In this document: piece by piece, positions 3,003-35,642 of the stretch
How positions within the stretch are numbered: position 1 is the first letter of the stretch
How the letters are laid out: each line of letters begins with the position of its first letter
Origin: Escherichia phage vB_EcoP-CC1
DNA: 44,532 bases
Reading direction: 5' to 3' (one strand)
Sequence record: OX457022
Notes under the pieces: generated by a model
Told to the model about the DNA's origin: nothing
The model's input: only the letters and a program-made list of their open reading frames with translations
Databases searched by the model: none
Made by a program: the position numbers and the translations under genes

Positions 3003-3950
3003 ATGAATATCTTTGAGTTCCTAGGTCTTCCAGAAGATCACCGCAACCACCCATTCATGTTGGTGAAACATCGTGGTGAAGTCCCTGAGAAGAAATTAAC
3101 CTTTCCATGTTATGCACAGGTGAAACGAGATGGAATATTCAGTGCTGTTGTGGTGCGTAATGATGGTGCTGTTGCCATCTTTGGTCGTACTGGTAAGAAG
3201 CTCGCAAATGTTGAAGCCTTGGAAAAGACATTTAGTGTATTTCCTGTCGGGTTGTATCTTGGTGAGTTGCAATCTATGGCTGTTGATGTTTATCTTGAAG
3301 CTCTATCAGGAGTGGTAAACCCTAATCGTACAGAGCCACTTGATTTCATAGGCCAGCAGATTAAAGACAACCTGTATATCGACTTCTTCGATATGTTAAC
3401 CATTAAGGCATTCCATGATGGATTCACTGATGTTTCTTATCTCAAACGTTACGATGCTTTACATCGTCGCATCGGCACTCATCTTAGCGGGTACAACGCT
3501 ATTCTTCCTATTACTCCTTGCCATAATGAGAGAGAGGTTGAAGCGTTTGCTCAAGAGCAAATAGATGCAGGCCGAGAGGGTGCTGTCTTTAAACTTGACT
3601 GTGATTATGAAGCAGGCCATAAAGGATATCGTCAGACTAAAGAAGTCCGTAAGGTAACTTATGACCTTACTTGTATTGGCTTTGAAGAAGGCAAAGGTAA
3701 GTACAAGGGTAAGGTAGCTAACCTCATTTTCAAATGGAAAGGAGGCAAGACAATCAAAGCTATGCTAGGTAAGGGGTGGACTCATGCAGATGCAGAACAG
3801 ATGTTCCATGATATTAAACATGGCGGACGATTGAATGTCATTGGTAAAATCTTTGAAGTCAAAGGTCTTCAGGATTCAAGCAAGGGCAACATTCGTCAGC
3901 CCAAAGCGGGAGAATTAAGACATGACAAAGATGAACCAGATTTCTTTTGA
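3003..3950 (+). CDS. ATP-dependent DNA ligase
   Basis: The adenylation motif VKRDGIF (KxDG) is present. GAGGA precedes the ATG at 3003. Size and position fit a T7-group ligase. Confidence 0.85.
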   Translation: MNIFEFLGLPEDHRNHPFMLVKHRGEVPEKKLTFPCYAQVKRDGIFSAVVVRNDGAVAIFGRTGKKLANVEALEKTFSVFPVGLYLGELQSMAVDVYLEALSGVVNPNRTEPLDFIGQQIKDNLYIDFFDMLTIKAFHDGFTDVSYLKRYDALHRRIGTHLSGYNAILPITPCHNEREVEAFAQEQIDAGREGAVFKLDCDYEAGHKGYRQTKEVRKVTYDLTCIGFEEGKGKYKGKVANLIFKWKGGKTIKAMLGKGWTHADAEQMFHDIKHGGRLNVIGKIFEVKGLQDSSKGNIRQPKAGELRHDKDEPDFF

Positions 3951-4137
3951 TAGTATGAAGGCGACTCGTGCTGTTGAGGTAGCAGAAGCTATCTTTGAAA
4001 CTTTATCTTGCGGCATGGAAGTGCCATATACTTTACTGGCTGATGCAGAAGAACTTGGTCTTTCTGTAGAAGCTATCCAAGAGAAAGTTGAGGAACTCTA
4101 TGGTACAGACGAAGAAGAAACCGACGATTTCATTTGA
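3922..4137 (+). CDS. Hypothetical acidic protein (C-terminus EEETDDFI)
   Basis: The ORF has GGGAGA 8 nt upstream and overlaps the ligase end. The start is uncertain; 3955 is an alternative. Confidence 0.4.
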   Translation: MTKMNQISFDSMKATRAVEVAEAIFETLSCGMEVPYTLLADAEELGLSVEAIQEKVEELYGTDEEETDDFI

Positions 4138-4141
4138 GGGG

Positions 4142-4270
4142 ATGGAGATGCTTGAGATGATTCTCAAGCCTTCTTCTCCGAAAGTAACTAAGACTCATGA
4201 AGAGTTAATCGTAGATGAAGTGAAGCGTTACATTATGGATTGTGTCAAGGCACAACTGGTAGTCCAATGA
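4142..4270 (+). CDS. Hypothetical 42-aa protein
   Basis: GAGGGG precedes the ATG at 4142. The stop overlaps the next start (ATGA at 4267-4270). Confidence 0.4.
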   Translation: MEMLEMILKPSSPKVTKTHEELIVDEVKRYIMDCVKAQLVVQ

Positions 4271-4948: not shown

Positions 4949-6499
4949 ATGATGCAAGACACCGACCTTGAGTATGGTGGAAAGCGGTCGAAGATACCTA
5001 AGTTGTGGGAGAAGCTATCTACTAAGCGCAGTCCTTTCATGGACAGGGCAAAGCACTATGCGAGGTTGACTTTGCCATACCTCATGAATGAGGAGGGAGA
5101 CAACAATACTTCTCAGAATGGGTGGCAAGGTGTAGGTGCACAGGCCACTAACCACTTAGCTAACAAGTTAGCACAAGTTCTCTTCCCTGCTCAACGCTCT
5201 TTCTTCCGAGTTGACTTGACAGCAAAAGGGGAGAAGATATTAAACAACAGAGGTCTTAAGAAGACCAAATTAGCTACGCTGTTTGCTCAAGTAGAGACTG
5301 CTGCTATGAAGCAACTAGAGCAGCGGCAGTTCCGCCCAGCGGTGGTAGAATGCTTCAAGCATTTGATTGTTGCAGGTAACTGTATGCTGTACAAGCCAAG
5401 CAAGGGTGCAATCAGTGCGATACCTATGCATCACTATGTAGTTAATCGAGATGCTAATGGGGAACTGCTGGATATTATCTTACTACAAGAGAAGGCGCTA
5501 AAGACATTCGACCCTGCAACTCGCATGGCTATTGAAGTAGGCATGAAAGGTAAGAAGTGCAAAGACAGTGATAATGTAAAACTCTACACACACGCCAAGT
5601 ATGAGGGTGAAGGTTTTTGGGAATTAAATCAATCAGCAGATGATATTCCTATTGGTAAATCTAGCAGAATCAAGGCTGATAAACTCCCATTCATCCCTCT
5701 TACTTGGAAGAGGTCTTATGGAGAAGATTGGGGTCGCCCTCTTGCAGAGGATTATTCTGGAGATTTATTCGTAATCCAATTCCTGTCTGAAGCGGTTGCG
5801 CGTGGCGCTGCTTTGATGGCCGACATTAAATACCTGATTCGTCCAGGTGCTCAGACAGATGTAGACCACTTTGTTAACTCAGGAACAGGCGAAGTAATCA
5901 CTGGTGTGGAAGAGGACATCCATATCGTACAACTAGGCAAGTATGCAGACCTAACACCAATAAGTGCTGTACTAGAGGTTTATACCAGACGCATCGGCGT
6001 AGTCTTTATGATGGAGACTATGACACGACGAGATGCAGAACGTGTAACTGCTGTAGAGATACAGCGAGATGCTCTTGAGATTGAGCAGAACATGGGTGGC
6101 GTATACTCACTCTTTGCTACGACTATGCAGACACCCGTGGCTATGTGGGGTTTGCTTGATGCCGGAGACTCTTTCACCAGTGACCTAGTAGATCCTGTTA
6201 TCATCACAGGTATTGAAGCATTAGGTCGCATGGCAGAGTTGGATAAGCTGGCTAACTTCGCTCAGTATATGGCATTACCTATGAGTTGGCCTGAGCCAGT
6301 ACAGGCAGCGGTGAACTGGCCTGATTATATGGATTGGGTTCGTGGTCAGATCTCCGCTGAACTTCCATTCCTAAAATCAGAAGAGCAGATGAAGAAAGAG
6401 CAAGCACAGATGGCACAAGCACAGCAAGAGCAGATGCTTAATGAAGGAGTAGCTAAAGCTGTACCTGGTGTCATTCAACAAGAACTTAAGGAGGCGTAA
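4949..6499 (+). CDS. Portal (head-tail connector) protein
   Basis: At 516 aa it sits immediately upstream of the scaffold and capsid genes, as in the T7/SP6 order. Confidence 0.85.
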   Translation: MMQDTDLEYGGKRSKIPKLWEKLSTKRSPFMDRAKHYARLTLPYLMNEEGDNNTSQNGWQGVGAQATNHLANKLAQVLFPAQRSFFRVDLTAKGEKILNNRGLKKTKLATLFAQVETAAMKQLEQRQFRPAVVECFKHLIVAGNCMLYKPSKGAISAIPMHHYVVNRDANGELLDIILLQEKALKTFDPATRMAIEVGMKGKKCKDSDNVKLYTHAKYEGEGFWELNQSADDIPIGKSSRIKADKLPFIPLTWKRSYGEDWGRPLAEDYSGDLFVIQFLSEAVARGAALMADIKYLIRPGAQTDVDHFVNSGTGEVITGVEEDIHIVQLGKYADLTPISAVLEVYTRRIGVVFMMETMTRRDAERVTAVEIQRDALEIEQNMGGVYSLFATTMQTPVAMWGLLDAGDSFTSDLVDPVIITGIEALGRMAELDKLANFAQYMALPMSWPEPVQAAVNWPDYMDWVRGQISAELPFLKSEEQMKKEQAQMAQAQQEQMLNEGVAKAVPGVIQQELKEA

Positions 6500-7407
6500 T
6501 GTCTTTTGAAATTATTAATGAACCTGTAAGTCAGTCTGACGTTACTGAACCTAAGGAGGTTGCTGATGTTACTACTACCGACACTGATTCTACTGTTGAT
6601 TCTTCTGGCAGCGATGTACAAGCTGACACAGGCAGTGCAGACGTACAAGACACCGGAGGAGCTGATATTGGAGGAGATGCAGGACAAGGAGAAGCATCTA
6701 GTGGATCGGATGATAAACCTGAGCCAGATGGTTCCTCGGACGAAGATGTACGATTCTTCTTTGGCGAACAAGAAGTAGAGATTGAAATCCCTGAAGATGT
6801 CTCCTCTGCCTTGAAAGAGAAAGGCATTGATGCAATGCAGGTAGCCAAGGAGCTTTACGGTGAAGGTGGCAAGTTTGAACTTACGGAAGAGACAAAGCAG
6901 AAGCTGTATGATGCATTTGGCAAGTTCGCAGTAGACGCTTATCTGAATGGACTGAAAGCATCTAACGAGGCATTCCTGATTAAATCTGAAGCTCAAGCTA
7001 AAGAAGCAGAAGCAGCAGATGCCCAACGCTTTACCGATATTGCATCGGAAGTTGGCGGAGAAGAAGGCTGGTCACGACTAGAAGAGTGGGCGCTAGAGAC
7101 GCTGTCTGATGAAGAATTAGCAGCCTTCAATGCAGTGATGGCCTCAGGTAATCAGTACCTGCAACAGTATGCTGTGCGTGAGCTGGAAGGTCGCCGTAAG
7201 CAAGCACAGGGCGATGACAAGCCATCATTGATTGAGCCGTCAGCACCTGCGAAGGCTAATGATGAGAACAGCCCACTTACGAGAGATCAGTATGTCCGAG
7301 CTATCGCAACTCTTAGCCAGAAATATGGTAATGACCGTAAAGCTATGGCGGAGGCTCAGGCGAAACTTGACGCTCGCCGTCGTGCTGGTATGGCTCGCGG
7401 ACTGTAA
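6499..7407 (+). CDS. Scaffolding protein
   Basis: This acidic, helix-rich 302-aa protein lies between portal and capsid. Its start overlaps the portal stop (TAATG). Confidence 0.8.
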   Translation: MSFEIINEPVSQSDVTEPKEVADVTTTDTDSTVDSSGSDVQADTGSADVQDTGGADIGGDAGQGEASSGSDDKPEPDGSSDEDVRFFFGEQEVEIEIPEDVSSALKEKGIDAMQVAKELYGEGGKFELTEETKQKLYDAFGKFAVDAYLNGLKASNEAFLIKSEAQAKEAEAADAQRFTDIASEVGGEEGWSRLEEWALETLSDEELAAFNAVMASGNQYLQQYAVRELEGRRKQAQGDDKPSLIEPSAPAKANDENSPLTRDQYVRAIATLSQKYGNDRKAMAEAQAKLDARRRAGMARGL

Positions 7408-9481: not shown

Positions 9482-11886
9482 TGGAAGTGCAAGGCTCATT
9501 AGGTCGTCAGATTCAAGGTATTAGCCAACAACCAGCAGCAGTGCGGTTAGATGGGCAATGTACCGATATGGTTAATATGGTTCCAGATGTAGTCAACGGT
9601 ACACAATCTCGCATGGGGAGTGTGCACATTGCAAAGCTACTGGACTCCGGCAGTGACAATATGGCAACACATCACTATCGAAGAGGCGATGGTGATGAGG
9701 AATACTTCTTTGTTTTAAAGAAAGGTAGTTTGCCGGAAATCTTTGACAAGCAAGGCCGTAGGTGTAATGTGACAACAAGGGATGCTCCTTTAGATTATCT
9801 AAAAGAAGTAGTAAATCCACGAGAAGATGTACAGTTTATGACTATTGCAGATGTCACATTTATGCTGAATAGGAGAAAGGTCGTAAAGACAAGGTCTGCA
9901 CGGTCGCCTAAGATCGGTAACACTGCCTTAGTTTTTAGTGCCTATGGTCAGTATGGGACTACATATCGTATAAAGATTAACAACGTTACAGCGGCAGAGT
10001 ACAGAACTGCAAATGGTGGAGAGGCTAGTGACATTAGTACAATCAGAACCGAAAGGATAGCAAGGGAGTTGTATGAGAAACTGCTCGCTTGGGAAGGTGC
10101 TGCCGATTATAAATTCAGTCGTGATGAGAATGTCATAACCATTAGTACTGTGGACGGTTCTACTGATTTTACTGTATCTACTAATGATGGTGCGAAAGGG
10201 CAAGACTTAGTTGCAATTAAATATAAGGTAACGTCTACTGACCTCCTACCTTCTAGAGCACCCGCTGGTTACAAAGTTCAAGTCTGGCCTACAGGAAGTA
10301 AACCAGAGTCCAGATATTGGCTAGAAGCAGAGAAGAAAGAAGGCAGCTTGGTTACTTGGAAAGAAACCATTGCAGCAGATGTCCTTCTAGGTTTTGATAA
10401 AGCCACAATGCCTTACCTTATAGAGCGCACAGATATTATAGATGGGATAGCGCAGTTCACTATAAGGCAGGGAGATTGGGAAGACCGCAAGGTTGGTGAT
10501 GACCTCACTAACCCCATGCCGTCCTTCATTGATAAAGAGAACCCACAAACTATAGGCGGCATGTTTATGGTACAGAATAGGCTCTGTGTAACAGCAGGAG
10601 AGGCTGTCATAGCTACTAGGACTTCTGCGTTCTTTGACTTCTTTCGCTACTCAGCAGTGGCTAGCGTTGCTACTGACCCGTTTGATGTGTTCTCAGATGC
10701 AAGTGAAGTCTATCAGCTAAAACATGCAGTTACTCTGGATGGTGCTACGGTCTTATTTGCTAACAGGTCGCAGTTTACAATCCCTGGAGATAAAGTACTG
10801 GAGAAGTCAAACATCGTATTACAACCAGCGACCACCTTCGAAGTTGACAACAGGGTTCCTCCTGTGGCAACGGGTGAGTCTGTGATGTTTGCTACTAGTG
10901 AGGGTGCTTACTCTGGTATCCGTGAGTTTTACACAGATTCATATAGCGATACGAAGAAGGCACAGGCTATTACTAGTCATGTGAATAAGTTGATACAAGG
11001 TAACATCACTCACATGGTTGCCAGTACCAATATTAACAGGCTACTCGTGATTACAGACAAAGACCCCAATATCGTCTATTGTTATGATTGGTTGTGGCAA
11101 GGGACAGACCGTGTACAATCCGCATGGCATAAGTGGGTGTGGCCTAAAAATACTCTGATACGATCTATGTTCTACTCTTCGGAGGCTTTGTATCTTCTAG
11201 TAGAAAGAGGCAATACGGGTGTCTACTTAGAGGTGATGGATATGGGGGATGCCCTCACATACGGATTGGTTGATAGGATAAGATTAGATAGGCAGGCAGA
11301 GCTTATCTTTACTTATGACTCTTACAACTCCCAGTGGGTATCAAATCCTTTACCTTGGATACCAACAGACACTACATTGCTAGATTGTGTACTGACCACA
11401 GGGTGGCCTGCTTATATTGGTGGGGCTTTTGGTTTCGAATATGATGCAGGTAGCAACACACTACGGACTACATTTGATTTAGCTGATGAGCAATCTAACG
11501 CTATCGTAGTGGTCGGACAGTTGTATCAACAGGAGTTTGAACCTACGCAAGTGGTTATCAGGGATAATCAAGATAGAGTCTCCTATATAGATGTACCTGT
11601 GGTTGGGTTAGTGCACCTTAATCTGGATAAATACCCTGACTTTGAAGTGCACATTAAGAATTTGAAAAGTGGAAAGGTGCGAAAAGCACTAGCCTCTAAT
11701 CGCAAAGGTGGTGCACTGAATAACATCGTGGGATATGTTAAACCTGAAGAGGGTTCTTTTAAGTTCCCCCTTAGGTCGCTAAGTACCGACACGGTTTATA
11801 GGATAGTTGTCAAATCACCTCACACTTTTCAACTAAGAGATATTGAGTGGGAGGGTTCGTATAACCCAACTAAGAGGAGGGTATAA
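9481..11886 (+). CDS. Tail tubular protein B (gp12-like)
   Basis: It is 801 aa, comparable to T7 gp12, and is coupled by a TGATG overlap. Confidence 0.8.
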   Translation: MEVQGSLGRQIQGISQQPAAVRLDGQCTDMVNMVPDVVNGTQSRMGSVHIAKLLDSGSDNMATHHYRRGDGDEEYFFVLKKGSLPEIFDKQGRRCNVTTRDAPLDYLKEVVNPREDVQFMTIADVTFMLNRRKVVKTRSARSPKIGNTALVFSAYGQYGTTYRIKINNVTAAEYRTANGGEASDISTIRTERIARELYEKLLAWEGAADYKFSRDENVITISTVDGSTDFTVSTNDGAKGQDLVAIKYKVTSTDLLPSRAPAGYKVQVWPTGSKPESRYWLEAEKKEGSLVTWKETIAADVLLGFDKATMPYLIERTDIIDGIAQFTIRQGDWEDRKVGDDLTNPMPSFIDKENPQTIGGMFMVQNRLCVTAGEAVIATRTSAFFDFFRYSAVASVATDPFDVFSDASEVYQLKHAVTLDGATVLFANRSQFTIPGDKVLEKSNIVLQPATTFEVDNRVPPVATGESVMFATSEGAYSGIREFYTDSYSDTKKAQAITSHVNKLIQGNITHMVASTNINRLLVITDKDPNIVYCYDWLWQGTDRVQSAWHKWVWPKNTLIRSMFYSSEALYLLVERGNTGVYLEVMDMGDALTYGLVDRIRLDRQAELIFTYDSYNSQWVSNPLPWIPTDTTLLDCVLTTGWPAYIGGAFGFEYDAGSNTLRTTFDLADEQSNAIVVVGQLYQQEFEPTQVVIRDNQDRVSYIDVPVVGLVHLNLDKYPDFEVHIKNLKSGKVRKALASNRKGGALNNIVGYVKPEEGSFKFPLRSLSTDTVYRIVVKSPHTFQLRDIEWEGSYNPTKRRV

Positions 11887-12611: not shown

Positions 12612-15554
12612 ATGGCAATTGAACGTCAAGCTGTACAAGGACTAGAAAGAGTACAGTCAAGGGGCGCGCCAACACCTATGTCTTTCACACCACGACAAGT
12701 GAGTATCTCAGGGGGCGCGGATGCCTCCGGTAGTAGATTTTTGGAAGACTTAGTAAACGCTGCAAGTAGTGTGGCTGATGTCACTACTGCTATCCTTAAT
12801 CAGCAAGTAGAAGACGATAAGGTTCGCCAGATGGATAGGGCTTTATCTGGCATGATGCCTTCTGAGGATGCTACGGTAGGTGGTGCTCGTGCGCATATGC
12901 TGGTTAGTTTACAAAATGATGTAATCGCACAGACAACTGCGCTACAAGTAGAAGCACAGCGATTTCAAGGTAGTGACGAGGATTGGGAAAACTATGTAGT
13001 TCAATCTCGTAATGAGGTACAAAATAGGTTATGGCAAAGTTATCCAGAGCTTCGTGGTGACAAAGATTCTATGAGACTTGTCACTAACGCGTTCATGGAG
13101 CAGCAACCTAGAATTACTGCAACTAGAGCAGAGGCTAAACTTCGTCAAGAAGAAGAAGCACGAATGCAATCTATGCAGTCTCGTATTATCATGGCTACAC
13201 GGGACGTAGCGCCAGATGCCACTGGTGCAGCACTCATCCAGTTACAAAAAGAAGCACTGGCGATGGGTCTTAGTAAACCTGAGTTTGATCAGATGGTTGC
13301 TAAGATTGCATCTGACAGAGCGGCAGTAGGAGATGATAGTCTTATTCAGGGAACCAAAGCACTGGTGGATGATAAGGGTGTCTCTTTGTATGACCGTGTT
13401 GGTGCTTTGCAAACTGGAGAGATTCAAGCTAACAGAGCTTGGGCTGCGCAGAATCAGGTTGCCCTCTTTGAGAAGAAGGATGCAGCTATAAAGGCATTCG
13501 ATGCAGGGCAACTTACTCGTGAAGAGTTACTTCAGGTGATGCAGAATCACAATGAATTGACTGGTGGTACTGCTTGGTCTGATAGCGAGATCAAGGCTAT
13601 CTTCGATAGGCAAGCTAAGGCTAATGCAGAGAAAGCAAAGCTCGAAGATCTTATTGCACGAGGTGAATCTGGGTCGCCTTTAGGTTTACAGGATATTAGT
13701 AAGGATGACAGAAAATCCTATGCTGAAGCCTTAGTTAGTACCTACACTAAGTTGGCAGAAGATGAAATTGCCCGTACTGGTGCAACGGGAGAACAGGCTG
13801 AAGCTATTCGCGGTAGGTATGAGCAGATGCGTTATCTTAAATTAGGGCAACAACTTATTGAAGACCCAATCATTAAGGAAAGATATTCGTCGCTTATGCA
13901 ATTATCCTCTGCCAACCTTAAAGATATGAATGTTGAGCCTGAAGCATTACAGACCATCATGCGAGCGCGGGACTCTATTCCAGAGGATGCACGTCGTGCT
14001 GTCATGGGAGACAAAGAGTATGCCTTTGTAGAGAACTACGACCTAGCAACTCGCATGGGGTATAACGCAGGTCAAGCTATTGAGTTTGCACAGAATGCCT
14101 CTCGTGGAGAGAAGCTACAAGGTTCTGTACTTAAAGAACTGAATGATGATGTAGATGGAGTTGTAAGTGATGTGGCAGGAGGTAGTTGGCTTACTCGTGG
14201 CGATAATATGAGTGAGATGGGTCGTGACATTATGATGGAGGAGGCAAGTACAATTGCGAGAGCAATGAAGGTTGCAGGTCATAATAATGACACGATTAAA
14301 CGTCATCTTAAATCCTATTTGACGAGCCAGTATACACAGTTATCAGAGGGCTTCTTCACCCAAGGTGTTCTGGTGAAAGGTGATGTACGAACATTAGGTG
14401 ACACTATAGGAGTAAACCAGAATGACCTTCCTATGGCGCTACGTCAATATATGGATAACAACAAGCAAGCACTTCTTGATGCATCAGGTGGCTTAGAAGA
14501 GGGTGATTTGTATTTTGATGTAGATGCGCAGCGGGGACTCTTTACCATACGTGCAGGGTCTGGTCGTGTACCTGTTACGCAGGCAATGCCTTTGTCTGAA
14601 ATCAAAGGGCAGTCCTTGCTTAAGCAAAGATATGATGCAGAGGTTAAAGCCCGTGATGAGGGGCGTAAGAATTTTGAAGCACAGCAAATGAGGATGTGGG
14701 GCGCAGGTGGCTACCAAGCACAACCACCTGCAAAGACTACAGCCAAAACTGTAGGCTCCCGTGGGATTGCTGACTTCTTAATGTCACCTGCCTTTGCATC
14801 AGGCGAGAATCTACCAGCAAACTTTGAGTTTGGATATAAGAGGAATAATATGGACTTCTACAATTATGTAGCCAAGATGGAGAATAATGCCAATGTGGGC
14901 TTTGACCGAGTAGCTGGTGTTTATACACCATACAAAGATGCACATGGTCAATCTGTCGGGTACGGTCACTTCCTTACTACTGAAGAGAAGAAGAACGGAT
15001 ACATTATGATTGGTACAGAGAAAGTGCCATTCACTCCGGGACAATCTCAATTAACACCAGAACGAGCCATGCGCCTTCTACAGCAAGACTTGAAGAGTCA
15101 TGTGCCAAACACTTCAGGGTGGGCTGTTCCATTCGAAGAGATGCACCCAGGTGTTCAGCGTGGCCTTATGGACTTGTCCTATAATTTAGGCAAAGGAGGT
15201 ATCCAGAATGCACCTAAAGCCTATGTTGCGTTTAAGGCTGGCAAGTTTACTGATGGATTTATTGAGATGTTATCTACTGCATCTACTGAAGGTAAGCGTA
15301 GTACTGGGTTGTTGGTTCGTAGAGCAGAAGCATACAACCTTGCACAGAGTGGAGGTGCTATTCCTAAGATTAGTGAAGTAGAGACACGAGCCGATGGGTC
15401 TATGTATGTTAAGTTTGCAGGACAGATGTCAGAGGCTTTCGTAAATAAATCAATCTACAATCAGATTGGTAAGGATGGATGGCTGCAAGTGTACCCTCCA
15501 AAACAAGGTGTACTTGCACCTAACACCAAGATTGGTAGAATCAAACTAAGCTAG
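12612..15554 (+). CDS. Internal virion protein B with a C-terminal lysozyme-like (GH24-type) domain
   Basis: It occupies the gp15 position. The C-terminus carries MENNANVGFDRVAGVYTPYKDAHGQSVGYGHF, which fits the T4-lysozyme-like E...D...T/GYGH pattern. Confidence 0.75.
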   Translation: MAIERQAVQGLERVQSRGAPTPMSFTPRQVSISGGADASGSRFLEDLVNAASSVADVTTAILNQQVEDDKVRQMDRALSGMMPSEDATVGGARAHMLVSLQNDVIAQTTALQVEAQRFQGSDEDWENYVVQSRNEVQNRLWQSYPELRGDKDSMRLVTNAFMEQQPRITATRAEAKLRQEEEARMQSMQSRIIMATRDVAPDATGAALIQLQKEALAMGLSKPEFDQMVAKIASDRAAVGDDSLIQGTKALVDDKGVSLYDRVGALQTGEIQANRAWAAQNQVALFEKKDAAIKAFDAGQLTREELLQVMQNHNELTGGTAWSDSEIKAIFDRQAKANAEKAKLEDLIARGESGSPLGLQDISKDDRKSYAEALVSTYTKLAEDEIARTGATGEQAEAIRGRYEQMRYLKLGQQLIEDPIIKERYSSLMQLSSANLKDMNVEPEALQTIMRARDSIPEDARRAVMGDKEYAFVENYDLATRMGYNAGQAIEFAQNASRGEKLQGSVLKELNDDVDGVVSDVAGGSWLTRGDNMSEMGRDIMMEEASTIARAMKVAGHNNDTIKRHLKSYLTSQYTQLSEGFFTQGVLVKGDVRTLGDTIGVNQNDLPMALRQYMDNNKQALLDASGGLEEGDLYFDVDAQRGLFTIRAGSGRVPVTQAMPLSEIKGQSLLKQRYDAEVKARDEGRKNFEAQQMRMWGAGGYQAQPPAKTTAKTVGSRGIADFLMSPAFASGENLPANFEFGYKRNNMDFYNYVAKMENNANVGFDRVAGVYTPYKDAHGQSVGYGHFLTTEEKKNGYIMIGTEKVPFTPGQSQLTPERAMRLLQQDLKSHVPNTSGWAVPFEEMHPGVQRGLMDLSYNLGKGGIQNAPKAYVAFKAGKFTDGFIEMLSTASTEGKRSTGLLVRRAEAYNLAQSGGAIPKISEVETRADGSMYVKFAGQMSEAFVNKSIYNQIGKDGWLQVYPPKQGVLAPNTKIGRIKLS

Positions 15555-15557
15555 TGG

Positions 15558-15601
15558 TATACTCAAGGTTTGTCTCACATGTGAGACATGCCTTTATGAA
15601 T
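15558..15601 (+). promoter_or_regulatory. RNase III-like hairpin with a palindrome apex (TATACTCAAGGT-tTGTCTCACATGTGAGACAt-GCCTTTATGAAT)
   Basis: It is intergenic. The flanks are identical to those of the hairpin at 41961-41996 and resemble the T7 R0.3 segment CTCAAGGGT...GCCCTTTATGAT (recalled). Confidence 0.55.
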
Positions 15602-15621
15602 GACACTGACTAGGAGGTAAC

Positions 15622-18600
15622 ATGGTTGATAGTATTAACCAAAACTGGGTGGCGGTGACTCAACGCAAGTTACCGCCTACCTTCTCTCAAATTGCTGAAG
15701 CTGAGCGTAAGGCTGAAGCCCAGAGAGCTAATGATAAAGTGTTTCAAACAGCATTAGAAAGTGAGTGGGCTTTATATGGCGGACAACGTGCCTATGAACG
15801 CCACACTACAGAGTTTGCTGAACAAGAAGGCTATGAAGTGCCTGAGTCAACTAAGGATGAGTTATCCAAGTTGTATGGGTATGAAATAGCGCAAGACATA
15901 GTTAAGAATGTAAAGTCTCCAGAAGAGTTGCAATTCCGTATGTCTAATGCTGCTGCTGATAAAGACAGAGCAGACATCTTAGCACGTAATGGTTTCACGG
16001 GTTTCAGCGCGCAGATTGCTGCTGGCATCCTTGACCCTGTAGGTTGGGCTGCATCCTTAGTGGCTGCGCCTGTAGCGGGTGCTGTCAAAGTAGGTAGGCT
16101 AGGTAGGATTATCAAGACGGCTGCCTTATCAGGTGCTGAAAATGCTGCATTAGAAGCTATACTTGCACAAGGTGATTACCAGCGAGGGGTTGATGATGTA
16201 CTGGCTGCTGCCGGATTTGGTATGATTATGGGCGGCACTATTGGTGCTGCAACCAGAGAGCGCATAGCCAGTGCTGGTTCTCGTACAGCGGCAGAACGAG
16301 CAGATGCTGTAGTTGATGACTTGGACACTGTAGTAAAAGGTGCTGATGAATTTGACTCGTCTGCGGCTCGTGCTGTACGTGAAGCTATGGAATATGACGC
16401 GTATATGGCAGCGCGTAATTACGAACCACTTCGTGCAAGAGAGGTAGATGCAGACATGGCGATTCTGTCTCACACAGACAATTTGAAAGCCAATGCATCG
16501 GTAAGGATGAGTGCTAGTGAGAAGGGGCAACTGAAGAAGCAGATACGTCAGCTTGAAGCAGAAGCAGCAACACTTAAAGGGAAGAAGATAGACACTGTAG
16601 CGGAAGCTGCGGCTGCTAAGGGTGCACCTAAATCTGCTGCTGACAGATTAGATTTGGATGTTCAGAAGAAAGCATTAGCACGTAGATTTGATGAACCACT
16701 GGCAGACTTACAAGCGCGTCTTGATGAGTTGAATGCTAAATTGTCTCGTGTAAACAATGTAGGCAAAGCCAAGGAAGAGCTTAAGAGATTCTCATCGCTA
16801 TCTCGTGAAGAGCAAATAAAGGAGTTAGGTCTAGACGCACCAGTGCGCAAGGTAGAGATGACCCGTGCCGTGCGAGATGCAATTGACGCAATCCGTGCCG
16901 AGCGTAAGAAGACGCCTACCGAAATACATGCTGAACAAGTCGCAGAAGATGCAATTAAGCAAAGGGCAGACGACTCTGTTGGTGCTAAACGTGTTGAAGG
17001 TTCAGAGATTGCAGGTGAACAGTTTGACCTATCTAAAAACATGGAAGAACTTATGGATGACTTGGCACGAGAAGCATACCAGTCAGAGGTGCGGCCTATT
17101 AATCTTAAGGGTTTAGGTTCAGTGTCTTCTGTGATTCTTAACTCAGAGAATCCTGTGTTCCGAGGCCTAGGTCTTCGTCTGCTTGAAAATGCTCAAGGTG
17201 GTGCATATCAAGGTAAGACAGCTTCTATCTTATCAGATGTGTATGGCAACCTTATTCGTCATGCAGAACGTAACAGATACAATGATGGCTTCTCTCAGTT
17301 CATCAAAGATAATAACCTACGTGCGGTAGACTATCTTAACCCTGCAACGACAAGGGATTTCAATAATCAGATTTATACAGCAATTGTTCGTGGCATACCA
17401 GAAGATACACCTCGTGGTGTTAAACTGGCAGCCGAAGGTATTGCAGATAAGCTCAAGAAAGCACTGGAGATTCGTAAGCAAGCAGGTGAGCGAGGCTTCG
17501 AGGATGTGCAATCTGCTAAAGATTATATTCCCGTTATCTACGATGGTATCAAGATCACAGAGGCAGTTAACAAGTTAGGTAGTAGTGAAGCTGTCATTCA
17601 CTTGCTATCTAAAGGGTATCAGACAGGCAAGTACAAACTTGGCAAGAAAGCTGCTGATGCACTAGCCAAAGTTCAGTATATTCGCGCATCTGACTCCACC
17701 CTCTCTAGTCGTGTTGCATTCGATAGGGTGGTATCCCAGCAGCAGCAGGCTCAATTGATTGAGGATCTGAAGAAAGCAGGAGTACCAGACCATATCATTG
17801 ATAATTTCATTGAAGGTACGGAATTAGCAGAAATGGCTGAATCGGTATCCAATCGAGCTAAAGCTAGTATGGGTATTAATACGCAAGCCGAATATGGCGG
17901 TTTGAAGGTGCAGGATTTGCTTAATACAAACGTAGGCGAGCTAGCTGAGAACTACGGCAAAGAGGCAGCAGGCGGTGCTGCATTAGCTGCCATGGGTTTC
18001 CCCACTCGCCAGTCTGTGCTGAATGCGATAGATGCCGCAGAACGCGCAGGTCGTAATATGGCGGGGTCAAATGCTAAGGCAATCAAACAGCTTAGGGCTG
18101 AGGCAGAAATGCTCAGAGATGCCGTTAAGCTCATTTACGGCAACACTATTGACGCCGACCCTAACTCTGGAATTGTCAGGGGCACTCGACGTGTCCGTGA
18201 GATTACAGGCTTGTTACGATTGGGTCAAATGGGCTTCGCTCAGATACCAGAACTGGCACGTGCAATCTCTAAGATGGGATTAGGTACTGTGCTGAAGTCC
18301 ATACCTGCCACGAAGTTCTTACGTTCAAGGGCGGCTCGTAAGGGAGGAACAGCTCAAGGTGAATTACTTGAACCTGAACTGCGAGAAATGGAGGAACTCT
18401 TAGGCTATATCGGGGAAGATAACTGGCTTACAGGGTGGAACGTCCGTCATGATGAGTTCGGAGAAACTGCTGATAACCTAGGTAAGCTGTCTGCTATTAT
18501 TGATAACGGATTAGCTATGGGTAGTAGAATCAACACAATACTCTCTGGATTTAAAGCAGTACAAGGTGGTTCAGAGAAAATTGTAGCTCGCTCTATCAAT

Positions 18601-19425
18601 AAGAGATTAAAGCAGCACTTGATGGGTGAGAGACAATTACCTAAAGCAGACCTTGAAGAAGTAGGCCTAAGTGAAGATGTCATGAAAAGACTTAAGCGTC
18701 ACTTTGATGACAACCCTCTGTACGCTGAGTACAATGGAGAAAAAGTTCGTATGCTGAACTTTGATGCTATGGAGCCAGACCTGAGAGAGACAGTGGGTGT
18801 TGCTGTGCGAAGAATGTCAGGCCGTCTTATTCAACGTAACTTCATTGGCGATGAAGGTATCTGGATGAATAAATGGTGGGGTAAGGCATTAACGCAGTTT
18901 AAGTCATTCTCTATTGTCTCTATTGAGAAACAGCTAATCCATGATTTACGAGGTGATAAGATTCAGGCTGCACAGATACTTGCATGGTCTACTTTACTAG
19001 GTTATGCATCTTATGCACTACAGATGCAGATGCAAGCGATTGGTAGGGAGGATAGAGACAAGTTCTTGAGGGATAAGTTTGACACACAGAACATCGCTAT
19101 GGGTGTCTTTAATAAACTTCCACAAGTTGCAGGCTTTGGTTTAGCTGGTGATGCTTTGGCAACCTTTGGCCTAATGCCAGACTCCATGATGCAAGCACCG
19201 GGACGCATGGGTTTCCGTCAGCAAGGCTTTGGGGATTTGGTAGCAGGTGCTGGTGTAATAAGTGATACAGTTAATTTGTCACAAGCACTGGTTAAGTATG
19301 CCAGTGGAGACGATGATGTCTCTACGAGGCAGTTGGTAGACAAGGTTCGTCGCCTTGTTCCTTTGGCAAATACTATTGGTGTGGGTCAGATGACTAAAGC
19401 CAGTGTAGATTTATTGGAGGATTGA
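15622..19425 (+). CDS. Internal virion protein C (gp16-position, 1267 aa)
   Basis: Called from size, synteny and the SD TAGGAGG. Confidence 0.8.
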   Translation: MVDSINQNWVAVTQRKLPPTFSQIAEAERKAEAQRANDKVFQTALESEWALYGGQRAYERHTTEFAEQEGYEVPESTKDELSKLYGYEIAQDIVKNVKSPEELQFRMSNAAADKDRADILARNGFTGFSAQIAAGILDPVGWAASLVAAPVAGAVKVGRLGRIIKTAALSGAENAALEAILAQGDYQRGVDDVLAAAGFGMIMGGTIGAATRERIASAGSRTAAERADAVVDDLDTVVKGADEFDSSAARAVREAMEYDAYMAARNYEPLRAREVDADMAILSHTDNLKANASVRMSASEKGQLKKQIRQLEAEAATLKGKKIDTVAEAAAAKGAPKSAADRLDLDVQKKALARRFDEPLADLQARLDELNAKLSRVNNVGKAKEELKRFSSLSREEQIKELGLDAPVRKVEMTRAVRDAIDAIRAERKKTPTEIHAEQVAEDAIKQRADDSVGAKRVEGSEIAGEQFDLSKNMEELMDDLAREAYQSEVRPINLKGLGSVSSVILNSENPVFRGLGLRLLENAQGGAYQGKTASILSDVYGNLIRHAERNRYNDGFSQFIKDNNLRAVDYLNPATTRDFNNQIYTAIVRGIPEDTPRGVKLAAEGIADKLKKALEIRKQAGERGFEDVQSAKDYIPVIYDGIKITEAVNKLGSSEAVIHLLSKGYQTGKYKLGKKAADALAKVQYIRASDSTLSSRVAFDRVVSQQQQAQLIEDLKKAGVPDHIIDNFIEGTELAEMAESVSNRAKASMGINTQAEYGGLKVQDLLNTNVGELAENYGKEAAGGAALAAMGFPTRQSVLNAIDAAERAGRNMAGSNAKAIKQLRAEAEMLRDAVKLIYGNTIDADPNSGIVRGTRRVREITGLLRLGQMGFAQIPELARAISKMGLGTVLKSIPATKFLRSRAARKGGTAQGELLEPELREMEELLGYIGEDNWLTGWNVRHDEFGETADNLGKLSAIIDNGLAMGSRINTILSGFKAVQGGSEKIVARSINKRLKQHLMGERQLPKADLEEVGLSEDVMKRLKRHFDDNPLYAEYNGEKVRMLNFDAMEPDLRETVGVAVRRMSGRLIQRNFIGDEGIWMNKWWGKALTQFKSFSIVSIEKQLIHDLRGDKIQAAQILAWSTLLGYASYALQMQMQAIGREDRDKFLRDKFDTQNIAMGVFNKLPQVAGFGLAGDALATFGLMPDSMMQAPGRMGFRQQGFGDLVAGAGVISDTVNLSQALVKYASGDDDVSTRQLVDKVRRLVPLANTIGVGQMTKASVDLLED

Positions 19426-28937: not shown

Positions 28938-29087
28938 ATGCCGTTGATCAAATCAGTTAAGCAAAGTGCTGTACACCAGAACACAGAAGAACTTATTCAA
29001 TCAGGACGTGACCCTAAGCAGGCCTATGCCATTGCCAAGGATGTACAGCGTCGTGCCATGAAGAAACCTTCTGCATCTTCTGCGTAA
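28938..29087 (+). CDS. Hypothetical 49-aa basic protein
   Basis: AAGGAGG precedes the ATG. The sequence is MPLIKSVKQSAVHQNTEELIQSGRDPKQAYAIAKDVQRRAMKKPSASSA. Confidence 0.5.
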   Translation: MPLIKSVKQSAVHQNTEELIQSGRDPKQAYAIAKDVQRRAMKKPSASSA

Positions 29088-29221
29088 TCAGGTTAATATC
29101 TTAGTGTACACAAGGGCAAACCTATGATAGCTCACAGCACACCTCTGAGTGCCGCTCTGGATTCTATGAATTGTTCCCTGACTATCTAGGTTTGCTCTTA
29201 GTATATTACAAAGGAGGTCAC

Positions 29222-29377
29222 ATGATTTGGATCCACACGTATGGTGTAGGGTCATTCAAGAAGAATGTACTCAGGAAGATCCATGAGTCCGAGGAATCAG
29301 CCTTAGCCAGCCAGAAGGTACTTGGTGGTACTATCCAGTGCTACATGAAGAAGCCACAAGGTTTTGACTTAGTGTAA
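29222..29377 (+). CDS. Hypothetical 51-aa protein (last gene before the genome end)
   Basis: AAAGGAGG precedes the ATG at 29222. The longer track ORF beginning at 29171 lacks an SD. Confidence 0.45.
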   Translation: MIWIHTYGVGSFKKNVLRKIHESEESALASQKVLGGTIQCYMKKPQGFDLV

Positions 29378-29435
29378 CCAAAGGTGGTCACAAAGTAACC
29401 AAAGTCAAAATTTTGATGTAGGCGTGTGTCAGCCC

Positions 29436-29724
29436 TCTCGCCCTCGCCCTCGCCGGGTTGTCCCCATAGGGTGGCCTGAGGGAATCCGTCTTCGACGGGC
29501 AGGGCTGATGTACTCCTTGTACTAGCTTAGTAGTACACAAGGGCTGGCCTTTTGTTTTGCCATGTACTAGCAAGGTGGAACGCTGGAGAGCGCCTAGGAC
29601 GGCCTAGGGATGGGCTTAGTGGTGGACAAGGTGATTGCCTTAGTGAAGCCTCTTAGTGCATTCCTGAGGCCATTCAGGGCGTTTATGAGATATTGACAGG
29701 GTGTGCGTGGGTGGGCTATCTGTT
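29436..29724 (+). other. Presumptive terminal-repeat / concatemer-junction region
   Basis: TCTCGCCCTCGCCCTCGCC begins at 29436, CCCCATAGGG lies at 29462-29471 and CTATCTGTT ends at 29724. These parallel T7 left-end features (TCTC..., CCCCCATAGGGGG, CCCTATCTGTT; recalled). The boundaries are not determinable from a collapsed assembly. Confidence 0.45.
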
Positions 29725-29794
29725 CGTTTCGTTCACTCCGCTTGCGCTACGTTCACTCGCTCACGTGTACCTTAGGTTGTTCCTTGATGGATAG

Positions 29795-29897
29795 CTTAGG
29801 TTAGCCTTAGTGGACTACCTTAGTTATAACCTTAGTGCTTATCTTAGTAATAGCTTAGTAATGTACCTTAGTAAGTCTTAGTGTCTTCTCTTAGTGA
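29795..29897 (+). repeat. Dense array of 9 CTTAG(T/G) short repeats spaced 10-13 bp
   Basis: Read directly. About 10 more copies are scattered across 29526-30216 and one lies at 30835. It is analogous to the T7 SRL/SRR arrays next to the terminal repeat. Confidence 0.8.
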
Positions 29898-30042
29898 TTG
29901 CACATGCAAGCATGTAAGATGCCATTAGGTCGCGGTCGGTAGACCGCTAAAGAAAGAGAATAGTAATAAGATGCAGTAGGAGGAACACCAGAAACCTAGC
30001 CAACCTAACCTATCCTAGCTCTGTATCTATTGCTTTTCCTTA

Positions 30043-30058
30043 GTCTAACATGTGAGAC
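30043..30058. repeat. Palindrome family copy, 1 mismatch (GTCTAACATGTGAGAC)
   Basis: Read directly. It is intergenic, 35 bp upstream of the -35 element of the first early promoter. Confidence 0.7.
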
Positions 30059-30092
30059 AACCTAGATTTATCTTAGTGATGATAGCTTAGTG

Positions 30093-30121
30093 TTGACAAG
30101 GCCATCTCAATGTAATACTAT
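30093..30121 (+). promoter_or_regulatory. Host sigma70 early promoter (TTGACA-17 bp-TACTAT)
   Basis: It has a consensus -35 element, 17-bp spacing and a good -10 element, upstream of the first early ORFs. Confidence 0.65.
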
Positions 30122-30192
30122 TCATCACGTAGGCAGCACTGAGGTGCTTAGTAGCCAGCTAGTAAGGCATACGAAGAGACTAGTGCCTGCAT

Positions 30193-30209
30193 TGCTCTTT
30201 AACAATTTG
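30193..30209 (+). promoter_or_regulatory. rrn-type boxA (TGCTCTTTAACAATTTG)
   Basis: It matches the E. coli rrn leader boxA TGCTCTTTAACAA. A hairpin at 30132-30190 precedes it. Confidence 0.65.
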
Positions 30210-30263
30210 CTTAGTGTAACCTATGTATGCCGTGGTTAATTACTTATTGAATGAGGGTTAACT

Positions 30264-30359
30264 ATGAATTACGAAGAAATGTATGAAGACTACTTCAATT
30301 CACTTGATGAAGGAGAAGAAGCATTGTCCTTTGCTGAGTTTATGGAGGCTTTATCATGA
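30264..30359 (+). CDS. Early 31-aa highly acidic peptide
   Basis: GAGGG precedes the ATG. The sequence is MNYEEMYEDYFNSLDEGEEALSFAEFMEALS. It is coupled to the next ORF by an ATGA overlap. Confidence 0.45.
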   Translation: MNYEEMYEDYFNSLDEGEEALSFAEFMEALS

Positions 30360-30532
30360 TTCTGAATAACCGTGAACTATCCATTCTCTTCACCTTGTTG
30401 TGCTATATGATTCGTAACAACGAATTACTTACAGACGATGAACTGGCACTATATCACCGTTTCCTTAACGAAGGTTGGGTCGATACAGTTAACCAGAAAC
30501 GTGACTTGATGAAGGAGTTAAGCAATGTTTAA
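30356..30532 (+). CDS. Early 58-aa hypothetical protein
   Basis: GGAGG precedes the ATG, and the ORF overlaps both of its neighbours. Confidence 0.5.
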   Translation: MILNNRELSILFTLLCYMIRNNELLTDDELALYHRFLNEGWVDTVNQKRDLMKELSNV

Positions 30533-30734
30533 ACATGAGATTTACACTGATTGCAGTAAATCGGCTAAAGCTATCTGCGATTTGTACAAGGCAGAATGCC
30601 AGACGTACAACCTCAACGATGGTACTGAGATGTTTTATCTTCAGTTTGAAAGCAAGTTATCTCACAAACGAGTGATTAACAGCCTGAATCAACACTCCTT
30701 GGAGTGGGAAGAAGTAAATAGCAATAAAGTTTAA
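30525..30734 (+). CDS. Early 69-aa hypothetical protein
   Basis: AAGGAG precedes the ATG, and the ORF is listed in the track. Confidence 0.55.
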   Translation: MFKHEIYTDCSKSAKAICDLYKAECQTYNLNDGTEMFYLQFESKLSHKRVINSLNQHSLEWEEVNSNKV

Positions 30735-30742
30735 ATTAACTA

Positions 30743-30771
30743 TTGACAGCCACGGCATACAAGGTTACATT
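30743..30771 (+). promoter_or_regulatory. Host sigma70 early promoter (TTGACA-17 bp-TACATT)
   Basis: It has a consensus -35 element and 17-bp spacing, upstream of ocr. Confidence 0.65.
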
Positions 30772-30803
30772 AAGCATCAAGACGGCGACGTCTTTAAACA
30801 TCC

Positions 30804-30820
30804 CGCTCTTTAACAATTTG
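30804..30820 (+). promoter_or_regulatory. boxA (CGCTCTTTAACAATTTG)
   Basis: It has the same 16-nt core as 30194-30209. T7 carries CGCTCTTTAACAATCTGG ahead of gene 0.3 (recalled). A GACG-GCGA-CGTC hairpin precedes it at 30781-30792. Confidence 0.65.
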
Positions 30821-30913
30821 GATGGTAGCTTCTTAGTCTGGATAGGTTAAACCTAGGGGATTCTCTTGAGTCTCCTATAATGTAACCTAACTAACTAAAT
30901 GAGGATTAATAAC

Positions 30914-31273
30914 ATGACTATGTCTAATATGACTTACTCTCAGGTTTACAACACCGCTCATGCTGCATTAGTTGAACGTATCTGGAATGATGCTATTGAT
31001 TGTATCGATAACGCACATGATGCAATCCATGAGGTAGCGGACAGTGCTGTACCAATCTATTATGCTGACATCTTCTCAGTGATGGCGAGTGAAGGTATTG
31101 ATCACTTCTTCGAAGACTCCGGCCTGATGCCAGATACTAAGGATGTAACGGTCGTACTACAAGCCCGTATTTATGAACAACTCACCATTGATTTATGGGA
31201 ACGTGTTCAAGATATGATTGTTGCGTACACCAATTACGCTGAGGATTCAGAAGAAGAAGAAGAGGAAGAATAA
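30914..31273 (+). CDS. ocr: Ocr (T7 gp0.3) homologue: DNA mimic, type I R-M/BREX inhibitor
   Basis: MTMSNMTY...[61 protein letters not shown] is near-identical to recalled T7 Ocr, and it has an acidic tail. Confidence 0.9.
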
Positions 31274-31275
31274 GG

Positions 31276-31389
31276 ATGGAAAAGCAATATAACTTTATCT
31301 TTTCAGACGGTGTGACCCTGAAGTGTTCCCTGCGTTTCGCACAGATTCGCGAGGAAGTGCTAGGAACTACATACAAACTATTTAGCTGA
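31276..31389 (+). CDS. Early 37-aa hypothetical protein
   Basis: The ORF starts 2 nt after the ocr stop. The sequence is MEKQYNFIFSDGVTLKCSLRFAQIREEVLGTTYKLFS. Confidence 0.4.
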   Translation: MEKQYNFIFSDGVTLKCSLRFAQIREEVLGTTYKLFS

Positions 31390-31402
31390 CACTATAAGAG
31401 AG
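31380..31402 (+). promoter_or_regulatory. Phage RNAP promoter variant (ATTTAGCTGACACTATAAGAGAG)
   Basis: It has the SP6-like TGACACTATA core, but A rather than G at the predicted +1 (31397). Confidence 0.55.
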
Positions 31403-31462
31403 GGTTTAACAGGGCGCTCTTGCGAGAGTGCCCGATTAAATCAACTTAACGAGATATTAAAT

Positions 31463-31639
31463 ATGAAATACATACTGATTGCTATGTTTTCTGGCTTCAT
31501 TGGCTATGCTGGTGCTTCTTATGACAACTACAGAAGTAAGCAATTGGCTGCTGAAAAGTGGGATAAAACCTATTTTGCTTGTATGAAACAAGGTAATTTG
31601 ATGCAAGATTGCATACTTAAAGCGCACAGCGAAGAGTGA
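31463..31639 (+). CDS. 58-aa protein with an N-terminal hydrophobic segment
   Basis: The ORF is under 60 aa and has a weak SD. The sequence begins MKYILIAMFSGFIGYAGA.... Confidence 0.35.
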   Translation: MKYILIAMFSGFIGYAGASYDNYRSKQLAAEKWDKTYFACMKQGNLMQDCILKAHSEE

Positions 31640-31703
31640 TGAGCCTATAGCCTACTTAAGTGGGCTATGTGAACACCATTCATTAACTCAAAAGGTGACT
31701 ATT

Positions 31704-32627: not shown

Positions 32628-32690
32628 CCTTATCGGTGGCATCTTCTTAGGTGTCACCTATTAAGGTTTCTTTCACTAGGAGTAAACAAG

Positions 32691-35318: not shown

Positions 35319-35325
35319 TATTGAT

Positions 35326-35357
35326 AGGCCATTCCTTAGGGAGTGGCCTTTTCTTTT
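35326..35357 (+). terminator. Terminator after the RNAP gene (early terminator analogue)
   Basis: The AGGCCA...TGGCCT hairpin is followed by TTTTCTTTT. Confidence 0.6.
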
Positions 35358-35392
35358 ACCTATTACCTGTAACATTTAATTAACATAACCGT

Positions 35393-35408
35393 GTCTCACG
35401 CGTGAGAC
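35393..35408. repeat. Palindrome family copy (GTCTCACGCGTGAGAC)
   Basis: It is a perfect dyad located 2 bp upstream of the promoter at 35411. Confidence 0.9.
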
Positions 35409-35410
35409 TT

Positions 35411-35433
35411 ATTTACCGGACACTATAGGATAA
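35411..35433 (+). promoter_or_regulatory. Phage RNAP promoter, ACCGG class (ATTTACCGGACACTATAGGATAA)
   Basis: It matches the core consensus and is the first of a tandem pair after the RNAP gene. Confidence 0.8.
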
Positions 35434-35573
35434 CCGTCGGAGACGGAAAGAGAAGGGAAGATAAGGATATAAAGGAAGTAATAGGTATTAAAGGTTGTAT
35501 AGGTTTACCTAGGAATACTTATTACCTTCTTCCTTCCTCTTCTTACTACCTAGAGGAAGGGCAGACCTAGGTT

Positions 35574-35589
35574 GTCTCACATGTGAGAC
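35574..35589. repeat. Palindrome family copy (GTCTCACATGTGAGAC)
   Basis: It is a perfect dyad located 4 bp upstream of the promoter at 35594. Confidence 0.9.
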
Positions 35590-35593
35590 TTCG

Positions 35594-35616: not shown

Positions 35617-35642
35617 GACTAACTTACTTTGGAGATTTAACC

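Follow-up and report, generated by a model that had tools for sequence, protein, structure and literature searches.

Two predicted T7-type RNase III processing signals with identical flanks and different apices, and a conserved palindrome, in an Escherichia phage of the SP6/K1-5 group

E. coli RNase III recognises elements situated within about 11 bp of where it cuts, and the cleavage site is independent of the position or sequence of the loop (PMC1540722). Adding 4 bp between the loop and the distal box left the cleavage site unmoved, and internal loops limit cleavage to one phosphodiester and leave protective 3' hairpins (PMC1540722). The RefSeq record of phage T3 contains ten stem-loops annotated 'RNase III recognition site'. 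Five of the ten (R0.3, R0.5, R4.7, R6.5 and R18.5) read (A/T)AACTCAAGG[apex]CCTTTATGAT, a pattern that is also seen in R0.3, R0.5 and R1.1 of T7. The apex of T3 R6.5 is a whole T3 promoter. R6.5 and R13 of T3 are a precedent for a T7-type RNase III cassette that carries another functional element in its apex with the flanks unchanged.

The DNA analysed here (the window) is the whole 44,532-nt sequence of Escherichia phage vB_EcoP-CC1 (OX457022). It is a circular permutation, with 100% identity, of Escherichia phage vB_EcoP-CC2, a Vectrevirus of the SP6/K1-5 group in the subfamily Molineuxvirinae. All the long ORFs and all 13 phage-promoter-like sites of the window are on the + strand. An earlier note had described two hairpins, at 15558 and 41961, with identical flanks and different apices. 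When both sequences were read again, this description proved exact. The left flank, apex and right flank are TATACTCAAGGT, TTGTCTCACATGTGAGACAT and GCCTTTATGAAT at 15558-15601 (site I), and TATACTCAAGGT, CACTTACGAGTG and GCCTTTATGAAT at 41961-41996 (site R). The 12-mers TATACTCAAGGT and GCCTTTATGAAT each occurred twice in the window, only at these two sites. The combined pattern CTCAAGG-N8-30-CCTTTATGA gave two matches, versus 0.00 expected from shuffled sequences. With their lower stems, the two sites are as follows.

41955-42003, + strand: site R, predicted T7-type RNase III processing signal (covariance model, fold and conserved core)
15552-15608, + strand: site I, predicted T7-type RNase III signal with an upper stem extended by a palindrome (covariance model, fold and covariation)

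Both sites matched exactly the T7-group core, ACUCAAGG...CCUUUAUGA around a variable apex. The flanks read UAUACUCAAGGU...GCCUUUAUGAAU here versus AAACUCAAGGUC...GGCCUUUAUGAUU in T7 and T3. The core, the fold and the intergenic position on the sense strand are like those of T7 R0.3, R0.5 and R1.1 and of T3 R0.3, R0.5, R4.7 and R18.5. The T7 R0.3 segment, which the earlier note had quoted as similar, was quoted correctly; T7 reads ACTCAAGGGTATCGCAAGGTGCCCTTTATGAT. The present phage belongs to the Molineuxvirinae, whereas T7 and T3 belong to the Studiervirinae, and its sites are known from sequence and predicted fold.

The RNA of sites I and R was predicted to fold into a lower stem of 7-9 bp, an asymmetric internal loop with ACUC on the 5' side and UUAUGA on the 3' side, and an upper stem opening with AAGGU/GCCUU. 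This architecture was equal to that of the T7 and T3 sites in minimum-energy and centroid folds alike. Sites I and R, and two further sites (E and F, described below), folded like T7 R1.1 and R0.5 and T3 R4.7 and R6.5, with two helices and an internal loop.

A covariance model was made from ten T3 and T7 sites only, and both strands of the whole 44.5-kb window were searched with the filters off. Site R (41955-42003) ranked first in the window with 51.1 bits (E = 5.9e-10), and site I (15552-15608) ranked second with 35.0 bits (E = 5e-6), these E-values being rough because the calibration of the model was shortened. A scan of the whole window against Rfam at the gathering threshold gave no matches, and no family for site I or R.

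In site R, the lower stem is GAGUUAU/AUAACUU, and the upper stem consists of 9 bp (AAGGUCACU/AGUGGCCUU) closed by a UACG loop. The folding energy was -19.2 kcal/mol (z = -2.9). The nine pairs are Watson-Crick or G.U, with possible non-canonical pairs closing the loop, similar to T7 R1.1 as folded here. Site R matches the T3 stem-loop annotated 'RNase III recognition site R0.5', and its GGUCAC...GUGGCC upper stem is shared with T3 R1.3, which reads AAGGTCACTTTAACGAGTGGCCTT. This is the classical apex type of T7 and T3.

In site I (z = -2.0), the upper stem is made of 5 and then 7-8 pairs, with a U.U mismatch between them. It spans 13-14 bp, compared with 9-10 bp in the T7 sites. In the consensus structure of eight orthologues from eight lineages, compensatory double changes affected five of the 22 pairs, of which three belong to the lower stem and two to the palindrome.

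The gene context given earlier, with site I between internal virion genes and site R after the DNA polymerase, held apart from a small correction of position. Site I is flanked by the genes of a 980-aa lysozyme-domain internal virion protein (12612-15554) and a 1267-aa internal virion protein (15622-19425). Site R lies 119 nt 3' of the DNA polymerase ORF (39269-41842) and 31 nt 5' of the phage promoter at 42027; a small ORF probably ends directly before it. Both sites are intergenic and on the transcribed strand of a polycistronic unit, as RNase III signals of the T7 group are. No GenBank feature was found at these sites in SP6, K1-5, LL11, CrRp3 or PP1.

The earlier identification of the two hairpins as RNase III-type sites was supported by the sequence, by the fold and by membership in the covariance model of the T3 and T7 sites. 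We consider it likely, from sequence and model, that sites I and R are two T7-type RNase III processing signals in rightward polycistronic transcripts. They are unannotated members of a well-known kind.

Processing by host RNase III is the best-supported mechanism at sites I and R, and probably at E and F too, judging from the models and from analogy. In each RNA, the lower stem, the asymmetric internal loop and the upper stem would form a quasi-continuous helix to be bound by the host enzyme. The internal loop would restrict the cut to a single bond on the 3' side. The upstream mRNA would then end in a protective hairpin, and the downstream mRNA would begin at a defined position. Cleavage is predicted in the UUAUGA strand, presumably at the bond equivalent to that cut in T7 R1.1. 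The identical 12-nt flanks are the conserved functional core of the family, comprising the upper end of the lower stem, the internal loop and the first base pairs above it. The apex would lie beyond the recognition boxes of RNase III and be free to vary. Diversity of the apex is expected, because the recognition elements are near the cut and the position of the loop is irrelevant to the cleavage site (PMC1540722).

Such diversity was found. A scan of IMG/VR with the pattern ACTCAAGG-N8-30-CCTTTATGA hit at least 120 loci, mostly on contigs of 38-45 kb. These gave at least 141 matches with at least 77 distinct apices; among the matches listed, 48 of 77 apices closed as hairpins. A BLAST search with the 41961 site gave hits in 876 phage records from across the T7 supergroup. 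The same flanks with differing apices are the norm for the T7-type RNase III family. The 'modular apex' of the earlier note was a true description, but of the normal design of the family, and does not point to a mobile element.

Both apices were found at the same positions in SP6, K1-5, LL11 and CrRp3, and the palindromic site I also in Pectobacterium phage PP1. At the level of genera, Vectrevirus and Zindervirus have both apices fixed in orthologous places, and Axomammavirus (PP1) shares site I. The 30-nt core CTCAAGGTCACTTACGAGTGGCCTTTATGA of site R was identical in SP6, K1-5, LL11 and CrRp3. Sequence like that of site I turned up in 89 phage records, and none of the 60 matches listed from these records overlapped an annotated feature. 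A recent insertion is not supported, because the two apices share their positions in the four phages. The palindromic apex, as compared across these genomes, predates the split of the three genera. Since the upper stem of site R is of the classical T7/T3 type, the palindromic apex would be the derived one, and the classical apex is probably ancestral.

The alignment of relatives, which had been proposed for finding the ancestral apex, took most of the interest from the apex swap, as the same apices stood at the same sites. The palindrome itself did vary by lineage, with the variants CTCAC/GTGAG, CTAAC/GTTGG and CCAAC/GTTGG.

The apex of site I is an 18-nt palindrome, TGTCTCACATGTGAGACA, that also occurs outside RNase III sites, whereas the apical element of T3 R6.5 and R13 is a promoter. 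With up to 3 mismatches, eight copies were found in the window, versus 0.04 expected. The earlier view of the palindrome as a repeated unit in the apex of an RNase III-type site was thus correct, with one of the eight copies capping site I. The skeleton GTCnnACnnGTnnGAC likewise had eight copies (0.04 expected), and numbered 7-9 per genome at orthologous places in three genera. Counts of the skeleton written as nGTCnnACnnGTnnGACn were 8 in the window, 9 in SP6, 8 in K1-5, 7 in LL11, 8 in CrRp3 and 9 in PP1, versus 0.04 in shuffles of the window. It was absent from T3, from the part of T7 searched and from 16 kb of K1F, the last serving as a negative control. All the copies (A-G and I) were orthologous among the relatives examined. 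They are listed below with the two structures that E and F cap; copies were identified by motif search and orthology, copy G by fold as well, and the structures at E and F by fold.

15571-15588, + strand: copy I, TGTCTCACATGTGAGACA, apex of site I
30042-30059, + strand: copy A, AGTCTAACATGTGAGACA, near the presumed left genome end
35392-35409, + strand: copy B, TGTCTCACGCGTGAGACT; the phage promoter at 35411 follows after 1 nt
35573-35590, + strand: copy C, TGTCTCACATGTGAGACT; the phage promoter at 35595 follows after 4 nt
36373-36390, + strand: copy D, TGTCTCACGTGTTAGACA, inside the primase/helicase ORF (35775-37763)
37922-37978, + strand: site E, RNase III-like two-helix structure (CAGGGCU...GGCUCUUAUUA) with the palindrome at 37941-37958 as its apex
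39135-39191, + strand: site F, RNase III-like two-helix structure with flanks UCAAGGGU...GCCUUUCAUCA and the palindrome at 39154-39171 as its apex
43689-43706, + strand: copy G, AGTCTCACATGTGAGACA; the phage promoter at 43721 follows after 14 nt

Sites E and F are downstream of the primase/helicase gene and upstream of the DNA polymerase region, respectively, and were orthologous in all the relatives examined. They folded strongly (-31.5 kcal/mol, z = -6.0 for E; -32.9 kcal/mol, z = -5.0 for F). Their flanks are a degenerate T7 core, and their scores with the T3/T7 covariance model were weak (10.2 bits, E = 5.7 for E; 17.1 bits, E = 0.12 for F). The window contains two strong sites (I and R) and two weak ones (E and F), while T3 has ten.

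Two early structures, at 31634-31681 and 32622-32672, also consist of a lower stem, an internal loop and an upper stem (z = -3.1 and -4.2). They too scored weakly with the T3/T7 model (17.0 and 13.3 bits). The second is directly before the RNA polymerase (RNAP) gene, which is the position of R1 in T7 and T3.

Copy D encodes S-H-V-L-D in the window and S-H/N-V-L-D across the relatives. It is kept in Vectrevirus, SP6, an SP6-like contig (L137) and PP1. Its synonymous third positions change from TCT/TTA through TCT/TTG to TCC/TTG, and the pair 5:14 is preserved. This pattern of sequence change suggests selection on the nucleotide sequence within the coding region.

Copies B, C and G stand just before phage promoters; the promoter at 35411 is the first after the RNAP gene and its terminator-like hairpin. 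The promoter-early stem-loop (PeSL) of T4-type phages is a repeated intergenic stem-loop just upstream of phage promoters, for which modular shuffling has been proposed. Copies B, C and G resemble PeSLs in placement; the phages, the polymerase and the sequence differ.

At site G (43710-43737), the promoter core ACTGGACAC (43725-43733) pairs with the upstream sequence GTGTCCAGT (43712-43720). The resulting hairpin of 10 bp contains the promoter (-24.5 kcal/mol, z = -3.7). In SP6, whose promoter sequence differs, the pairing arm has changed with it (GTGTCTCT/AGGGGACAC). The structure is like T3 R13 and R6.5, whose stem-loops contain the promoter.

Another promoter, that at 42027 (ATTTACTGGACACTATAGAAGG), is abutted by a half palindrome, TTGTCTAACATG, at 42014-42026, at a distance of 18 nt from site R. 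This half may be what is left of a copy that decayed or was truncated. Phage LL11 (L125) has two HNH endonuclease genes (6325-6762 and 10030-10509) that the window lacks. They are inserted some 100-200 nt downstream of palindrome copies C (at 6123) and F (at 9912), respectively. This proximity may be coincidence, intergenic space being scarce.

The palindrome was also found outside the phages. A scan of IMG/VR for TGTCCAACNNGTTGGACA returned SP6-like phages and 60 prophage-like loci. The latter represented 27 distinct cassette sequences with one palindrome each, for example the following.

L152 (IMG/VR 2681813232_000003), 3905-4160: prophage cassette; others are in L266, L267 and L268, and about 60 further loci are among L149-L265

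The order in the cassette is a T7-group-like promoter, the palindrome TGTCCAACNNGTTGGACA, an SP6-group promoter, a strong Shine-Dalgarno sequence and a hydrophobic ORF of 37-40 aa. The first promoter, e.g. CAATACAACTCACTAATGGAGAGG, had exact 21-nt matches in phages 285P, P694, PYPS50 and PcCB251. The second, of the SP6/K1-5 type (ATTTACTGGACACTATAGAAGG), is the same as the window promoters at 7414, 27234 and 42027. In E. coli, the cassette is in lambdoid prophages, between HNH/terminase and lysis genes, upstream of iss/bor. It was found in 632 of 5,426 complete E. coli genomes (about 12%), and among the matches listed, it carried no annotated feature in 23 of 25. In the variants of the cassette, the specificity bases of the promoter change and the palindrome is kept; in L268, the K1-5-type ACTGGACAC is replaced by the SP6-type AGGTGACAC.

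The peptides of 37-40 aa matched no NCBIfam, PHROG or PADLOC family, and their homologues were all 'hypothetical'. A literature search on prophage cassettes driven by phage-RNAP promoters found nothing. A plausible reading of the arrangement is that the cassette is a prophage moron that would be switched on by RNA polymerase from a T7-like or SP6-like phage entering the cell.

As for the function of the palindrome, it would serve in the RNA as a stable helix module, forming the upper stem of three processing signals (I, E and F), and a stand-alone hairpin just before three promoters (B, C and G). The variable middle pairs are C-G or A-U at 6:13, and U-A, U.G or C-G at 5:14. Among 78 context-distinct copies, the half-site combinations were TC/TC in 32, CA/CA in 22, TC/TA in 11 and TA/CA in 9, and the mixed TC/CA was never seen. 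The sense strand had nine G.U pairs versus one A.C pair, from few independent events. At E, F and I, pairing extends into the flanks by G.U pairs that are possible only on the + strand. The covariation of the halves and the G.U bias in these sequences favour an RNA hairpin.

The same observations speak against the rival that survives best, namely that the palindrome is a double-stranded DNA operator, bound by a dimeric host or phage protein at promoters or a replication origin, and that its role in the apex is secondary. On this reading, the skeleton GTC..AC..GT..GAC is kept in all copies in three genera with differing promoters (the search pattern fixed these positions), and copies B, C and G are within 1-14 nt upstream of promoters. 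B and C are at the first two promoters after the RNAP gene, which is the place of the primary origin in T7 and T3 (seen here for T3). The prophage cassettes, too, keep the palindrome beside an SP6-type promoter while the specificity bases change. Further support comes from copy A, the most degenerate one, whose halves vary independently. It is upstream of a sigma-70-like, early host-type promoter at 30093, tolerates mismatches, and is probably untranscribed, which a simple stem does not explain.

Other facts that weigh against the RNA reading concern the stem itself. Copies B and C alone gave a 6-bp hairpin with no significant folding energy, and the hairpin of copy G by itself likewise has 6 bp. 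In the 16-nt core, 12 positions were constant across the three genera, although the search pattern fixed those positions. The conservation, as far as it can be read from the sequences, exceeds the need of a mere stem. The halves of a palindrome can also covary by templated 'quasi-palindrome correction' in replication, without selection on RNA, and the G.U bias could be strand-biased mutation. On the other hand, an operator would not explain the variable distance to the promoters (1, 4 and 14 nt) or the lack of the palindrome at most promoters of the window. A Pfam search of the 20 uncharacterised ORFs of the window found no DNA- or RNA-binding domain. We regard the operator as unlikely, and prefer the RNA helix module.

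Several candidates for a known DNA site were tried and rejected. Compared with the sites of CRP, the LacI family, DeoR, FabR and SlmA and with matS, the palindrome did not appear to fit any of them, its half-sites being differently oriented or spaced. Recognition by T7 primase (GTC) and restriction sites were considered as well, and dropped as unspecific.

The earlier note had also proposed that the palindrome is a mobile or recombining mini-element, inserted into or exchanged with the apex of a pre-existing RNase III site. The palindrome is indeed a discrete repeated unit of eight copies, and the classical apex is the probable ancestor. Moreover, site F of K1-5 (L124, 9569) and site E of CrRp3 (L126/L146, 3221) carry CCAAC/GTTGG between unchanged flanks, where other Vectrevirus have CTCAC/GTGAG. 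This switch consists of four coordinated differences confined to 18 nt. However, the CCAAC variant also stands between almost identical flanks in the SP6-like contigs L136, L137 and L138, so ordinary homologous recombination between phages explains the two cases. As judged from these sequences, the K1-5 and CrRp3 variants are probably products of recombination with SP6-like phages.

Every copy of the palindrome is orthologous in Vectrevirus, Zindervirus and Axomammavirus. There were no target-site duplications, no empty sites or presence/absence polymorphism in the relatives examined, and no coding capacity. The Correia repeat enclosed elements (CREE) of Neisseria are mobile elements of roughly 100-150 bp with target duplications, and are variably present. 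They too are short repeated elements with inverted repeats, are associated with promoters, and are bound or cut by RNase III in transcripts (PMC2649163). The palindrome here differs in being 18 nt long and fixed at orthologous sites, with no sign of mobility. A recent or mobile insertion was not supported by these facts, and we hold the mobile element to be very improbable.

Least probable of all, and hardly credible, is a role of the hairpins in intrinsic termination or pausing of host or phage RNA polymerase in place of processing. A simple terminator scan flagged B (35393-35408 + TTATTTACCG) and C (35574-35589 + TTCGTATTTA) as weakly terminator-like, and the sequences that follow E, F and I are moderately rich in U. 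But B and C have short stems of 6-8 bp with 50% GC, a far stronger terminator-like hairpin is at 35326-35349, site R was not flagged in the scanned region (29000-44532; site I is outside it), and the 'tail' CCUUUAUGA at I and R, read directly, is the conserved internal-loop strand of T7 and T3 and not a U-run.

The hairpin at 35326-35349 (AGGCCATTCCTTAGGGAGTGGCCT followed by TTTCTTTT) is 8 nt past the stop of the RNAP gene. It may terminate early transcription by the host RNA polymerase. Copies B and C and the first two phage promoters are within 250 nt of it, at the position of the T7/T3 primary origin.

Returning to the palindrome as a whole, a literature search for it, its variants and the RNase III sites of SP6 and K1-5, with Dobbins 2004 and Scholl 2004 outside its range, found nothing relevant. 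A broader proposal, which we make tentatively and think rather doubtful, is that the palindrome is an ancient conserved cis-element of the Molineuxvirinae, read by a trans factor, and that lambdoid prophages have also captured it, along with phage-RNAP promoters, in polymerase-triggered cassettes. If so, the candidates for the trans factor would be a host protein, a phage protein, or RNase III in a special mode.

For the biology of these phages, the gain from sites I and R is in annotation. Two strong sites, two or more weak ones and two early candidates can be added to the transcription maps of Vectrevirus and Zindervirus. This is relevant to engineering and therapy with K1-5-, K1E- and SP6-like phages, as RNase III sites set mRNA boundaries and stability. 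The apex swap is of low interest, and the palindrome family and the prophage cassettes are worth following up. The same skeleton recurs in three genera, where it is part of RNase III sites, precedes the first phage promoters and also lies within a gene. If the cassettes are what they appear to be, they would fire only when a phage supplies the RNA polymerase, as a natural polymerase-triggered defence or moron-induction switch. This would represent a simple natural 'promoter-bait' logic of immunity, and would give an experimental handle on the role of the palindrome.
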